A stretch of DNA of 63,289 nucleotides, filler included, from Octopus bimaculoides (Eukaryota), in assembly GCF_001194135.2 (NCBI RefSeq). It is 6 parts of 6 records of this genome, joined end to end, with 100 filler letters (N's around TTAATTAATTAA, not from the genome) between each part and the next. Parts side by side here need not be neighbours in the genome. Positions count along the whole stretch, not along the records: positions 1 to 18,094 come from NC_068983.1; positions 18,195 to 25,921 come from NC_068985.1; positions 26,022 to 38,395 come from NC_068982.1; positions 38,496 to 48,815 come from NC_069001.1; positions 48,916 to 61,925 come from NC_069009.1; 1 more part is not named here. The stretch is one strand, 5' to 3'. Below are positions 17,395 to 61,794 of this stretch, one piece after another. Made by a program: the position numbers and the translations under genes. Positions within the stretch are counted from its first letter, which is position 1, and every line of letters starts with the position of its first letter. The notes beneath the pieces are model-generated. The model did no database searches, was not told the origin of the DNA, and worked only from the letters and a program-made list of their open reading frames with translations.

Positions 17395-17655
17395 GCGCAC
17401 CTTCGTTTTGGGATTACCACTACTTTATTGTCTCCCCTTCTTCCTAGCTCTCCTGTGTGACCCCTCTGTCTGGCATTCGCCATGATAGATCGCTAGCCAC
17501 TACACATTCTTTATTTTCTCTCCTTGTTTCTTTCTGTGGAAGAGTGTAGGCTCGAAACGTTAAAGACTTTTTCACTTCCCGAGCGTTAAACTAATACATC
17601 TGTTTGTTGTCTACTCTACCTGTTTTCGTCTTTTGTTTTTTTTGTGAATTCTCCG
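17395..17655 (+). mobile_element. Penelope pseudo-LTR/3' region containing an HHR-like motif
   Basis: Follows the CT-rich tail of the Penelope element; related sequence at 20965-21140. Confidence 0.65.
17529..17566 (+). ncRNA. Minimal type I hammerhead-like motif (non-canonical core)
   Basis: TCTTT-CTGTGGA-A-GAG tgtagg CTC-GAAA-CGT-T-AAAGA; stems I and II pair; palindromic ACGT. Confidence 0.6.
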
Positions 17656-17710
17656 CCTATAAATTATTAAGGTGGCTTATTCGCATTTATAACCAAAAGG
17701 CACAAGTATA

Positions 17711-18034
17711 GACGTCATTAAGTTGAGTAAGGGTGCTAACCAGCACCAGAGTTGCTAGAAATAAGAGTCACAACAACTCTTAGTTATATGAAGCGCTTAT
17801 CTAGTGACTGACAAGGGAGACAATCTCCCTACAGCAAGCAAGACAGAACCAGATTACCGATGAAGATTAATCAAATACGAAATCATCGATTATTTGGCTC
17901 TGTCTCGCTTGCTGTAGGGAGCTTGTCTCCCTTGTCAGTCATTATACAAGTGCTTCCCGTGGCTAACAGTTGTTCTCACTCTTATTTATAGCAATGCTGG
18001 TGCTAACTAGCGCCCTTAGTCACCTTAGTGACGT

Positions 18035-18035
<1 letters not shown>
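17711..18035. mobile_element. Fold-back MITE-like element (imperfect ~140-bp arms)
   Basis: e.g. GTGACTGACAAGGGAGACAATCTCCCTACAGCAAGC versus GCTTGCTGTAGGGAGCTTGTCTCCCTTGTCAGTCAT. Confidence 0.75.
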
Positions 18036-18094
<59 letters not shown>

Positions 18095-18194
18095 NNNNNN
18101 NNNNNNNNNNNNNNNNNNNNNNNNNNNNNNNNNNNNNNTTAATTAATTAANNNNNNNNNNNNNNNNNNNNNNNNNNNNNNNNNNNNNNNNNNNN
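18095..18194. other. Artificial scaffold join (44N+TTAATTAATTAA+44N)
   Basis: Identical 100-bp format at 25922, 38396, 48816 and 61926. Confidence 0.95.
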
Positions 18195-18819
18195 ATATGT
18201 ATATATATATATGTGTTTATATATATATGTATATAGATATGTGTTTATGTATGCATGCAAGTATGTAAATAAAAGGTATGTATAGCCACATACATATTAT
18301 AAACCTTGCAGAATTCTCTGAATCCTTTGACTGGACAAGTCCTAACTTTCTATTTATTTTATTTTTTTTTTTTTCACAAACATCACTTATAATTTAGAAT
18401 ATTAAAAGTGATGTTATGGCTATTGAAATATTGCTAACTGTATGCGTTTATATGAATGGCTTAACCTTTCGGCAAACGGGGTTCTTTTTTTATCTCTTAT
18501 TTATTTAGAATAGAGCAATGTTTGCATAGTTTTCCAACCCTTATTATACAACATTCGCGTCCATAATCATTACAGTTGCTAGGAAGTGTTTTCTTTGAAA
18601 ACAAATGGTAAAATTTCAAAACAAATTGGAATGTCAGACATATATACATACACGTATATAACATATATCTCTATGTACGTATGTATGTGTTCATGTGTGT
18701 ATATATATATGTATGTGTGTGTGTGTGTGTGTGTGTTTATGTGTGTGTTTGTGTATGTATGTACGTATCTATCCATCTATATCTATATATATATATATGT
18801 ATATATAAGTGTGTGTGTA

Positions 18820-18854
<35 letters not shown>

Positions 18855-18864
18855 NNNNNNNNNN

Positions 18865-18907
<43 letters not shown>

Positions 18908-19211
18908 GCATATACACACAGGTATATATATGTATTATATATAAATATAAATATACATATTCGTACACACATGGCATATATATTTGAGGTGAATAGATAG
19001 ATATTTTTATAGACAGATAGATAGATAGATAGAAACATACATACATACATAGACATGTAGGAAGGTAGGTAGGTAGGTAGGTAGGTAGGTAGGGAAGTAG
19101 GTAGTTATACTTACTTATGCGTCGATCTTTCCATTTCTATATATGTATATGTGATCATATATATATATATATATATATACCTCTGTATAAATATATGAAT
19201 AAGTGACTTAC

Positions 19212-19247
19212 ACTGGATTTCTTGAGGACCTTTTGACTTTTTCTGCA
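19212..19247 (-). CDS. S-crystallin short loop exon (CRKSQKVLKKSS), phase 0-0
   Basis: tattttcag|TGC...AGT|gtaagt; 36 nt, open, in phase with the upstream exon; sits where S-crystallins carry their inserted peptide. Confidence 0.7.
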
Positions 19248-19464
19248 CTGAAAATAGTTTTAAAAATCATAATTTGTAATTATGTGTGTTGCAGATATAT
19301 TTTCGGTTGTCTGGAATCTACTCTTCATCACAATAAATATTATATTTGCGAAATTAATGTACTGACACATATGTGTGTGCGCTTGTATATCTGCAGATAT
19401 TTTCGTATGTATTTGCATATATATATATATGCCACGTATTCGTATGCAGTTTTGTTTAGTGTGG

Positions 19465-19522
<58 letters not shown>

Positions 19523-19986
19523 GTGTGTGTGTGTGTGTGCGTGTGCGTGCGTGTATGTGTGTGTATGTGTGTGTACCTATTTGACTTTGTTTTTGTCGCT
19601 ATTTATAGGTGGATATATTTAATGGCGGTTTATCATTTTTGATAAAATCATTGCCAGCAACTAAAATAAATGTGTTGGTTTTCCGTTAGTAGGTATGTTG
19701 TTACAAATTCTCTTTGCAAGTGCGATATTGTGGTAGTCATACATTTATCCAGACTATTTAGATTAAACGTTTTGCAACAGAGCGACATCTTATTTGTATT
19801 ACATGTCTACAATGAATCTTCCTATTTTTTTTTTTTTTTTTGTGTTACTTAGTCTGGCGCATTCTCTGTTATCTGTAATCCTCCGAAGAATTGAGCCGGA
19901 AGATCATGGTTAGGTCTTTTCTATTTCATGTTTCACTTTGCTATACCTAGTTCAACAAAATCCCACGTAGAATTTATTAAAATACT

Positions 19987-58923: not shown

Positions 58924-58962
<39 letters not shown>

Positions 58963-58964
58963 AA

Positions 58965-59330
58965 GGCATGGCTGTGTGGTAAGAAGCTTGCTTCACAACC
59001 ACGTGGTTCCTGTTTCAGTCCCACTGTGTGGCATCTTGGTTAAGTGTCTTCTATCTGTAGCCTCGGGCTGACCAAAGCCTTGTGAGTGGACTTGGTAGAT
59101 GGAAATTGAAAGAAGCCCGCGTGTGTGTGAATCGTGTGTTTGTCTCCTACCACCACTTCATAGCTGATGTTGGTGTGTTTACGCCCTTGTAACCAAGCAG
59201 TGCAGCAAAAGAGATTGATAGAATAAGTACCAGGCTTAATAAAAAAAAAGTACTTGAGTCCATTCATTTGATTAAAAATTCTTCAATGTGGTGCCCCAGC
59301 ATGACCACTGTCTAAATGACTGAAACTACG
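58965..59330 (+). mobile_element. SINE family B
   Basis: Full head, core and tail. Confidence 0.85.
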
Positions 59331-59357
59331 AAACAAATTATATATACATATATATAC

Positions 59358-59417
<60 letters not shown>

Positions 59418-59736
59418 TATAAATAATATGTATATATGCATATATACACACACACATGTACATGCCTACATATATGTGTATATATACATGCATATATGGC
59501 TACAGGACATCAATAAAAGCTTGGAAAACGAACATTTTTCGAACAACGAAAGAAAGAAATAGAGAAATGAAACAGGCAACATTTGTCCCGTTGTATCTAC
59601 TCCGTGTATATATGTATGTATATATATATGTAAATATATATAATTAACTTTAAAAAAAATGGAGTAAAAAAGATAACAGGAAAAAACAACAATGCGAGGA
59701 CGTGGTGACGCTCAGGGTAGGAAACAAAGAATGGTT

Positions 59737-59771
59737 GTTTTACGTTTCAAGCAAAGCTCTGCTTCAGGAAC
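59737..59771 (-). ncRNA. Degenerate minimal hammerhead in a Penelope-type tail
   Basis: GTTC-CTGAAGC-A-GAGC ttt GCTT-GAAA-CGT-A-AAAC (A9>C). Confidence 0.6.
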
Positions 59772-60054
59772 AGGAGACACAGGAAAGTCCAGAAGAAAAG
59801 GAAGAAAAGATCACCAACAGTCCACGTGTAGTTACATATATATACACACATATAAGTGTATGTAAGTATGGATGTTTGTATATATGTATGTATTTGTATG
59901 TCTGTGTTTGTCCCCCAACCATTGGTTGACAACTGATGTTGGTGTGTTTTCATCCCCGTAACTTAGCAGTTCAACAAAATAGACCGATAGAATAAGTACT
60001 AGGCTTACAAAGAGTAAGTCTTGGGGTTGATTTGTTCAACTAAAGCAGTTAAAT

Positions 60055-60121
<67 letters not shown>

Positions 60122-60994
60122 NNNNNNNNNNNNNNNNNNNNNNNNNNNNNNNNNNNNNNNNNNNNNNNNNNNNNNNNNNNNNNNNNNNNNNNNNNNNNNN
60201 NNNNNNNNNNNNNNNNNNNNNNNNNNNNNNNNNNNNNNNNNNNNNNNNNNNNNNNNNNNNNNNNNNNNNNNNNNNNNNNNNNNNNNNNNNNNNNNNNNNN
60301 NNNNNNNNNNNNNNNNNNNNNNNNNNNNNNNNNNNNNNNNNNNNNNNNNNNNNNNNNNNNNNNNNNNNNNNNNNNNNNNNNNNNNNNNNNNNNNNNNNNN
60401 NNNNNNNNNNNNNNNNNNNNNNNNNNNNNNNNNNNNNNNNNNNNNNNNNNNNNNNNNNNNNNNNNNNNNNNNNNNNNNNNNNNNNNNNNNNNNNNNNNNN
60501 NNNNNNNNNNNNNNNNNNNNNNNNNNNNNNNNNNNNNNNNNNNNNNNNNNNNNNNNNNNNNNNNNNNNTTCATAACAGATTATAAATCACATAAAAAAAA
60601 AAATGAGGAAAACTTGTCTTCATTAAAAAAAATTATTTCAAGTAATATTAATTTTGTTATGAAACCAATAATAATAATAATTAATAATTAATTTTTCATT
60701 ATAATTATAACCATTATTTATTTTATTTTGCTTGAATTTGATTTGTAAGAATTTTTATTTCAAACTGTGTGTGTTGAAGCCAATTATGTTATATTTCGGG
60801 AAAATCATACTGTTAAAAACAGATTCTCTGCTTGTGGTTTATGTGACATTTTGGTAAAATATTCAGAAATATTTCATCACAAAATCCTGTGATCCGACAA
60901 CTTGGCCATGATGTTTCATCAAAGCTTGTATCCTCTAAACTACATCAGAGCTGGAAACTTCAAGTTCTGTTTGAGAGCTGAATATGTTGTTGTT

Positions 60995-61346
60995 GGGTTC
61001 CAGTTGATCCGATCAACGGAACAGCCTGCTCATGAAATTAACATGCAAGTGGTTGAGCACTCCACGGGCACATGTACCCTTAACGTAGTTCTCGGGTATA
61101 TTCAGCGTGACACAGTGTGACAAGACTGACCCTTTGAATTACAGGTACAGCAGAAACAGGAAGTAAGAGTGAGAGAAAGTTGTGGTGAAAAAGCACAGTA
61201 GGGTTCGCCACCATCCCCTGCCAGAGCATCGGGGAGCTTTAGGTGTTTTCGCTCAATAAACACTCACAATGCCCGGTCTGGGAATCGAAACCGCGATCCT
61301 ATGACCGCGAGTCCGCTGTCTTAACCACTGGACCATTACACCTCCA
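60995..61346 (-). mobile_element. SINE family A
   Basis: Homologous to 47228-47610. Confidence 0.9.
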
Positions 61347-61550
61347 CAAGAGTTGAATATACAAACATACTTTTGTACCTATATATAGGTGTGGTATGAA
61401 GATTGCTTCCCATCCACATGAGTTTGGGTTCAGTCCCACTGTGTGGTACCTTGGGCAGGTATCTTCTACTATAACCTCACACTGACGAAAGCCTTGAGTG
61501 GATTTGGTATAGTGAAACTGAAAGAAGCCTGTTGTGTGTATATATATATA

Positions 61551-61687
61551 GATGTTTGCGATCTAGTTTGGATTTTTTGCCTTCAAATTTGAATTCTTTG
61601 CCATCAAATTTGAATTCTTTGTAATCAAATTTGGTGGCAAAAAATTCAAATTTGAAGGCAAAAAATCCAAACTAGATCGCAAACATT
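61551..61687. mobile_element. Short hairpin MITE in a TA context
   Basis: ATGTTTGCGATCTAGTTTGGATTTTTTGCCTTCAAATTTGAAT and its reverse complement. Confidence 0.85.
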
Positions 61688-61711
61688 TATATATTCCCTT
61701 CCATATCAGGT

Positions 61712-61794
61712 AACTCTGATGAGCGTAAGGTTATATAATTGGATTGTTACTTAACACTCCATTGTATTCCTTGTGTGAAACCGATTGGTAAGAT
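61712..61794 (+). ncRNA. Type I hammerhead with long stem II loop
   Basis: CT-CTGATGA-GCGTAAGG(38 nt)CCTTGTGT-GAAA-CC gatt GG-TA-AG; canonical core. Confidence 0.65.

Follow-up and report, generated by a model that had tools for sequence, protein, structure and literature searches.

Hammerhead-like motifs, probably of Penelope-like repeats, in Octopus bimaculoides: a known kind of element with one unusual core variant

Introduction

Minimal hammerhead ribozymes (min-HHRs) of metazoan Penelope-like elements (PLEs) have been reported not to cleave as monomers and to cleave slowly as dimers, and their proposed role is the release of the element RNA (PMC4209133). PLE hammerheads are kept in most clades yet are poor cutters in vitro. 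A total of 31 recently active Penelope-like families have been described in Octopus vulgaris, with no mention of ribozymes in passages of the report (PMC13282606), and the words "ribozyme" and "hammerhead" are absent from passages of two octopus repeat papers, including this one. The present study concerns a window of 63,289 nt (the whole stretch of DNA analysed, six joined parts of the Octopus bimaculoides assembly GCF_001194135.2), in which an initial annotation had listed ten hammerhead-like motifs. These motifs are very probably the hammerhead ends of PLEs and of their short non-coding parasites. They belong to about six families of mostly damaged would-be RNA cutters, presumably spread by PLE enzymes, among which one family carrying a U in place of the A of core position 6 (A6U) has been amplified.

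Hammerhead-like motifs in the window

The window consists of AT-rich animal DNA (34.6% GC, 5,881 N) that is rich in microsatellites and repeats. A hammerhead-like motif was present at all ten annotated places, the annotated coordinate being the outer end of helix I wherever helix I exists. Named by their C3 positions, the motifs are 17534+, 21027+, 25651+, 32312+, 36491-, 38791-, 38898+, 57131+, 59767-, and 61716+. Although all ten were found, they represent only nine insertions, since 38791 and 38898 are the two arms of one fold-back, giving approximately one insertion per 6.4 kb of the 57,408 called bases. The nine insertions fell into about six repeat families, in agreement with the several families initially proposed. 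The motif-bearing features are as follows:

17529..17566 (+): minimal type I hammerhead with A6U (C3 17534, U6 17537, H17 17561), helix I of 5 bp, helix II of 3-4 bp, CG palindrome
21027..21054 (+): member of the A6U family in decay, antisense to S-crystallin, with core and helix II retained and helix I missing
25651..25921 (+): retrozyme-like unit that begins at C3; the core is canonical and helix II has 5 bp, but the 5' arm of helix I is missing and the palindrome of helix III is broken
32110..32417 (+): retrozyme-like monomer of ~308 nt with a 7-nt terminal direct repeat; its hammerhead (32308-32350) has a long bulged helix I, a palindromic helix III, and a broken core (positions 3, 5, and 10.1)
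36413..36495 (-): type I hammerhead, canonical core, 4-bp helix I, helix II with a 46-nt loop, perfect palindromic helix III
38671..39012 (no strand): fold-back insertion flanked by (TA)n runs, holding a pair of hammerheads that point away from each other, 38748-38795 (-) and 38894-38941 (+)
57088..57257 (+): short element of very high abundance; its minimal hammerhead (57126-57171) has a canonical core, a 5-bp helix I, and a 6-bp helix II
59737..59772 (-): decayed minimal hammerhead between (TA)n runs, A6 kept, A9C, G-U at 10.1-11.1, first helix I pair broken
61714..61792 (+): hammerhead, canonical core, 8-bp helix II with a long loop, palindromic helix III, 2-bp helix I

The canonical core and both stems were retained only in 36491- and 57131+ (2/10), while both stems with one core change were found in 17534+ (A6U) and in 38791- and 38898+ (both U4C, without the G10.1-C11.1 pair). 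Helix I was absent or reduced in 21027+ (also A6U), 25651+, 59767- (also A9C), and 61716+, and the core was broken in 32312+, so that 8/10 copies had a core change or no helix I. Position 6 was A in eight motifs and U in 17534 and 21027. Stem III had been described as mostly palindromic, and a self-complementary helix III was indeed present in eight of the ten motifs, having been lost in 25651 and 57131; a helix III self-duplex, through the dimer-permitting palindrome 15.2-16.2, was likewise predicted for 8/10. The likeness of 59767 to the 17534 family was weak (alignment scores of 110-118 vs 94 for an unrelated pair), and a single weak copy of this sort cannot be proved alone. Just upstream of 61716 lies a near-perfect hairpin (91%) of 151 nt (61544-61694), which is likely to be a small repeat resembling a DNA transposon.

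Chance matches in AT-rich repetitive DNA are an alternative that is refuted for the set as a whole and to which we assign next to no probability. The published min-HHR descriptor (CUGANGA, helix II, GAAANNUH, helix I) was rebuilt from the PMC4209133 supplement (Fig. S7) and applied with five relaxed versions of our own to the window and to 1059 dinucleotide shuffles in 500-nt blocks; the relaxed versions were devised after the motifs had been seen, and the published descriptor is the unbiased test. Observed counts against shuffle means were 2 vs 0.00, 2 vs 0.00, 3 vs 0.02, 5 vs 0.08, 5 vs 0.27, and 8 vs 0.89, with the published descriptor giving 2 vs 0.00, the version with both stems and a single core mismatch 5 vs 0.08, and that with a single mismatch but no helix I 8 vs 0.89. 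A similar density in shuffled sequence had been named as the result that would undo the initial annotation, and 0/1059 shuffles reached the observed count with any of the six descriptors. Moreover, family majorities restore pairing in the 57131 family, and variation in the 17534 family is concentrated at N7, loop II, and H17. In favor of chance, the loosest descriptors do give a background (means 0.4-0.9), and two of the eight loosest matches (34638 and 52994) lie outside the ten and look like background; in addition, 12/12 matches to the U6 pattern in viral contigs lacked helix I, showing that the pattern alone occurs by chance.

The published descriptor was passed by only one of the ten motifs (57131) and by its duplicate described below, while 36491 fits with a longer loop II and helix III and the other eight motifs deviate from it. 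A second descriptor set allowing any 3-8 pair gave 0, 2, 3, 3, and 4 matches, counts reached in 1899, 141, 19, 20, and 0 of 1899 shuffles, respectively (e.g., 3 observed vs a mean of 0.44, with 19/1899 shuffles as high); 32312 was recovered by this set only with two core deviations. Scanning the window for a swapped 3-8 pair yielded no further convincing motif, and the candidate at 56781 was rejected for its lack of helix I and its background-level score. No hammerhead was among the best 150 of 230 Rfam matches, which comprised only microsatellite-driven miRNA matches.

A fixed A6U core in an abundant family

The two U6 copies in the window share 109 of 138 aligned letters. Family-wide variation was assessed over 17490-17600 in three DNA runs and one RNA run (X24) from three organisms (A, B, and D), with every difference row inspected at a threshold of 10%. 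At position 6 (17537), no letter other than U reached the threshold in 4/4 runs, at a depth of ~1,300 RNA reads and a summed DNA depth of 1.5-3.7 million, which is not a copy number and is inflated by short contigs. This indicates that U6 was already present in the source elements of the family, the remaining fold of which appears conserved. All four letters occurred at N7, whereas H17 was U or A (A in 25-71%) with no G row at 10%, and none of the 28 stem and core positions showed another letter at 10% in the three DNA runs. The contrast between invariant and free positions (0/28 vs 3/8, Fisher p=0.008) is post hoc, treats non-independent sites, and is descriptive only. G12, which lies at a CpG, showed another letter in 15% of the RNA and 2-4% of the DNA. 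The 111-nt stretch was matched by 7,690-8,395 contigs, which sets thousands of variants as a floor; a rough estimate is 10^4-10^5 copies, which fits the 1-3 copies per 57 kb in the window. The core of this very abundant family is therefore a fixed CUGUNGA.

Outside octopus, metagenome matches to the 17534-like pattern carried A6 in 89/94 cases and U6 in 4/94, and all four U6 matches lacked helix I. Neither a natural A6U family nor octopus hammerheads were found in the literature searched, which covers few subscription papers.

Published data predict that A6U would cleave more slowly: a natural A6C hammerhead cleaves at <0.1 per min (PMC3088659), and in a deep scan changes in the CUGA turn other than a 3-8 swap resulted in low activity (PMC9901934). 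These same data speak for an alternative that we consider possible but doubtful, namely that the fold persists chiefly because it gives the PLE reverse transcriptase (RT) a signal for recognition or folding, with cutting dispensable, so that A6U or U4C families could amplify. It is consistent with U6 being fixed in a family of thousands of distinct contigs from three organisms with invariant stems and other core positions, and with Naiad PLEs, which amplify without a canonical hammerhead. In contrast, the A6U family has kept G8, G12, and a cleavable H17, which fits catalysis; U4C retains enough activity for viroid infectivity; and low variation could also reflect few recent master copies. The retention of G8, G12, and a cleavable H17 leads us to favor a slow but real cutter over a non-catalytic signal for the A6U family. 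The broader proposition is put forward as a tentative one with the odds against it: hammerhead-bearing Penelope ends would number around 10^5 in octopus genomes, and a fixed-A6U family would have reached tens of thousands of copies in several species because its fold is a non-catalytic signal for PLE enzymes. If the fold were such a signal, cutting would be dispensable for Penelope retrotransposition. A fixed-A6U family side by side with canonical-core families in one genome offers a natural comparison by which the role of PLE hammerheads can be tested.

Directly after the 17534 element, a fold-back was observed at 17712-18034 (152-nt arms, 82% complementary), with a possible hammerhead 3' half near its center (GAAA, palindrome, UA) and no matching 5' half.

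The abundant 57131 family

The second family studied in reads is represented in the window by a copy with a canonical core. Over 56560-57257, the summed contig depth rose from ~20,000 to 3-8 million at 57088-57257. Among the differences recorded for the family (40 of 161 rows), the letter at 57158 that keeps the G10.1-C11.1 pair accounted for 58-61% of the depth in two DNA runs and 73% of the RNA reads, and the letter at 57164 that keeps the CG palindrome for 74-87% and 67%, respectively. The pairing letters are thus those of the family majority, and it is at 57158 and 57164 that the copy in the window has decayed; the G-C pair and the CG palindrome persist in most other copies. Next to this element lies a second copy:

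57268..57539 (+): duplicate with a second motif (C3 57413), 100% identical over 272 nt across a 10-N gap

A true dimer of 57131 and 57413 was considered and dropped, as 100% identity across a 10-N gap makes the duplicate a likely assembly artefact. A similar duplication flanks the gap at 15853-15879, suggesting that both are likely assembly overlaps.

Several further observations concern the surroundings of this element. Its ~40-nt tail is repeated upstream (56595-56870), split by a TTAA-flanked inverted-repeat element of high depth (~56624-56851). A longer form (56595-57087), of far lower depth, has an (AAT)n run and a tRNA-like-looking segment (56944-57015) in between, the latter unconfirmed by ARAGORN, which reported no tRNA. 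In addition, the high-depth element has its left edge marked by a second, degenerate hammerhead-like hairpin (57090-57121), which lies 40 nt upstream of 57131 and looks like helix II of the 25651 family.

Retrozyme-like units and a fold-back

The 25651 and 32312 copies share two segments in opposite order, and are thus permuted copies of one ~310-nt unit. Both 32110-32417 and 25651-25921 are non-coding units of 200-400 nt with a type I hammerhead and no Pfam match in the scanned frames, and 32110-32417 fits a retrozyme-like monomer. No tandem array of at least two hammerhead-bearing units was present in the window, which holds monomers only, the sole apparent dimer being the one that spans an N gap at 100% identity.

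In the fold-back at 38671-39012, the arms share 143 of 154 aligned letters and the motifs diverge from the center. Each hammerhead carries U4C and a palindromic helix III, and its 7-bp helix II lacks the G10.1-C11.1 pair. The insertion marks of endonuclease-bearing (EN+) PLEs, i.e., an inverted partial copy, a short duplicated tail, and a microsatellite target, were found in this fold-back and in the tail repeat of 57131.

Association with PLE coding sequence and origin of the motifs

Two PLE remnants were identified in the window by homology, with clade labels that rest on motifs rather than on a tree:

15317..16597 (+): broken PLE open reading frame (ORF) remnant with the RT thumb, a CX4CX2C linker, and the GIY-YIG end, of Neptune/Nematis type
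36759..36974 (-): endonuclease C-terminus of a Hydra-clade-like PLE, lying on the same strand as the 36491 hammerhead and ~265 nt upstream of it

The first remnant had 92 homologues (best 55-59% identity) and showed 53-58% identity in the RT thumb to full-length PLE RT and GIY-YIG proteins (tblastn). The 17534 motif lies on the same strand ~930 nt after it and is probably the 3' pseudo-long terminal repeat of this element. The second was 55% identical to an 806-aa protein (P0097) with DKT, YRDD, and CxCX5C motifs; its relatives were recovered by a full HMMER search, while a word-indexed search with the 36738-36986 fragment gave none. Furthermore, 14 of the 94 metagenome loci matching the 17534-like pattern had a PLE protein match on the contig, and 11/94 lay 93-292 nt downstream of it on the same strand. 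A single min-HHR family, with a canonical core and a helix I of 3 bp, accounts for most of these loci (L001-L094), and its contigs also carry PLE ORFs.

Other mobile-element pieces were also noticed. Pfam fragments of RVT_1 (two) and Transposase_1 lie at 28881-29183+, 37008-37145+, and 48053-48220-, and the Hydra-like PLE piece is cut short by the RT fragment at 37008, which directly adjoins it. The frames 2760-3095+, 43367-43768+, and 45524-46186+, which had no matching Pfam family, look like pieces of non-LTR restriction-like endonucleases and the end of a long terminal repeat (LTR) retrotransposon integrase. No PLE domain was found by Pfam in 243 of the 309 short reading frames (2 of the 243 added by hand).

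Several observations weigh against a PLE origin and function of the motifs. The link between 17534 and its ORF crosses ~930 nt that include a 397-N gap (16927-17323), and no PLE coding remnant was found near the other 8/10 motifs with 242 query proteins covering two PLE lineages only. The hammerhead was not the predicted minimum-energy fold for most copies, although folding neither backed nor refuted any single copy. The 25651/32312, 36491, 38791/38898, and 61716 families are described here from their window copies alone, so U4C may be family-wide or limited to one insertion. In addition, RNA run X24 showed no piled read starts or ends and no back-joint at the cut site for the 17534 and 57131 families, in a weak test given that it is a cDNA library in which 77-79% of the mapped reads run on into unrelated sequence. 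Three short go-back joints were seen on the 17534 stretch (6-24 reads), none at H17. Both families were present in the RNA reads at depths >1000, and since most reads run on into unlike sequence, this signal comes mostly from copies inside other transcripts.

We nevertheless retain the PLE origin as the best explanation, under which the following course of events is envisaged. In a source element, the motif would cut the element RNA from a longer transcript after position 17, two motif copies pairing through the palindromic helix III for cutting. Copies truncated at the 5' end, many of them accompanied by an inverted partner, would next be placed at AT-rich or (TA)n sites by the PLE reverse transcriptase/endonuclease. 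As the motif would lie within the 3' end piece and be kept by even the shortest copies, a density of ~1 relic per 6 kb could arise, and the inserted copies would decay, mostly in silence. One abundant family has spread with U at core position 6 and the rest of the fold kept, which suggests a slow cutter or a use of the fold without cutting. Cleavage, dimers, and mobilization by PLE proteins in the window families are our reading of these features. As for the very large and diverse hammerhead/Penelope/retrozyme system initially proposed, the Penelope/retrozyme kind, the several families, and the great abundance of two tested families in DNA runs are borne out, but the idea of an active system able to cleave pre-mRNA found no support. 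Individual window copies are ordinary decayed repeats, and their density points to a large reservoir of such motifs in cephalopod genomes, as yet unsurveyed.

Motifs near the S-crystallin gene

One motif (21027) had been placed inside a crystallin gene in antisense orientation. Two exons of this gene were confirmed:

21914..22028 (-): S-crystallin exon, residues 57-95 of protein P0093, 100% identical to Octopus vulgaris S-crystallin 3-like and further supported by PDB 5b7c
24414..24506 (-): S-crystallin exon, residues 27-57 of P0093

The window yielded no match to residues 1-26 or 95-185 of P0093, and no motif lies between the two confirmed exons. The antisense orientation of 21027 stands, the exons being on the minus strand, but the motif lies ~860 nt beyond the second exon and is intronic only if the gene continues leftwards. 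With helix I missing, the orientation of 21027 is in any case of no consequence. At 19980-20707 (-), two open pieces with a repeated E-x-x-I-R-R-K-T motif flank a repeat (20228-20611) that has four copies in the window at 91-94% and 14-nt direct repeat flanks. These pieces may be an S-crystallin long-loop exon, absent from P0093 and interrupted by an insertion, in which case 21027 would be intronic.

The suggestion that intronic motifs could cut pre-mRNA in sense found no backing here. In this alternative, live cis-acting ribozymes would cut host pre-mRNA and the host would select against sense intronic copies, for which one may cite the antisense orientation of all three motifs nearest the S-crystallin exons, the RNA depths of the two families given above, and the depletion of retrozymes from Xenopus introns (passages of bioRxiv 10.64898/2026.07.22.740005). 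We judge it improbable: three of three antisense has a chance p=0.25, which makes intron orientation uninformative; 8/10 copies are defective and X24 showed no piled read ends; and a min-HHR needs a partner, single ones being uncleaved in vitro (PMC4209133).

Comparison with known systems

The window motifs resemble the min-HHRs of metazoan PLEs (Cervera and de la Pena 2014, PMC4209133) in being of type I, with an extra base after A9, a short helix I, and a palindromic helix III. They also share the G10.1-C11.1 pair and the palindromic 15.2-16.2 of the published consensus, the mostly solitary occurrence, and the close opposite-strand pairs; the position downstream of a same-strand RT-GIY-YIG ORF is shared by 36491 and probably by 17534. 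In contrast, the representatives in Fig. S3 of PMC4209133 all have A6 and U4, whereas the octopus window holds a fixed U6 family and one C4 insertion, and two window motifs have loop II inserts of 37-46 nt, beyond the published descriptor. Cephalopods are absent from that set. The density of 9 insertions per 57.4 kb looks well above its counts for Xenopus (~9,000) and coelacanth (~4,000), which include intact motifs only, against a single window here.

Similar to animal non-LTR retrozymes (Cervera and de la Pena 2020, PMC7229834; Li, Clavereau and Pollet, bioRxiv 10.64898/2026.07.22.740005), the window contains a ~310-nt non-coding low-GC unit, and the 25651 and 32312 copies share the type I hammerhead, the long bulged helix I, and the dispersed monomers described for these elements. 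Unlike those elements, the window has no tandem array and both copies are defective. The coding remnants were compared with the Neptune/Nematis and Hydra clades of EN+ PLEs (Craig et al. 2021, bioRxiv 10.1101/2021.04.23.441226), in which hammerheads are present: the Neptune/Nematis-type CX2-5CxxC linker was found in 15317-16597, and the DKT and CxCX5C motifs of Hydra-clade PLEs in the best full-length relative of 36759-36974. The (TA)n targets, inverted 5' copies, and short tails of EN+ PLEs recur here as well, although the window holds fragments only. All layouts in the window (PLE-adjacent, fold-back, and permuted retrozyme-like) have been published for other animals.

The core variants A6C and U4C (Perreault et al. 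2011, PMC3088659) alter the identical positions and were both reported to lower activity; A6U is not named in passages of that paper. Those are isolated cases from a phage or a viroid, whereas the octopus A6U is fixed in a high-copy animal repeat. Hammerhead repeats of this kind are already known, and the fixed A6U core, absent from the literature searched, is the unusual part.

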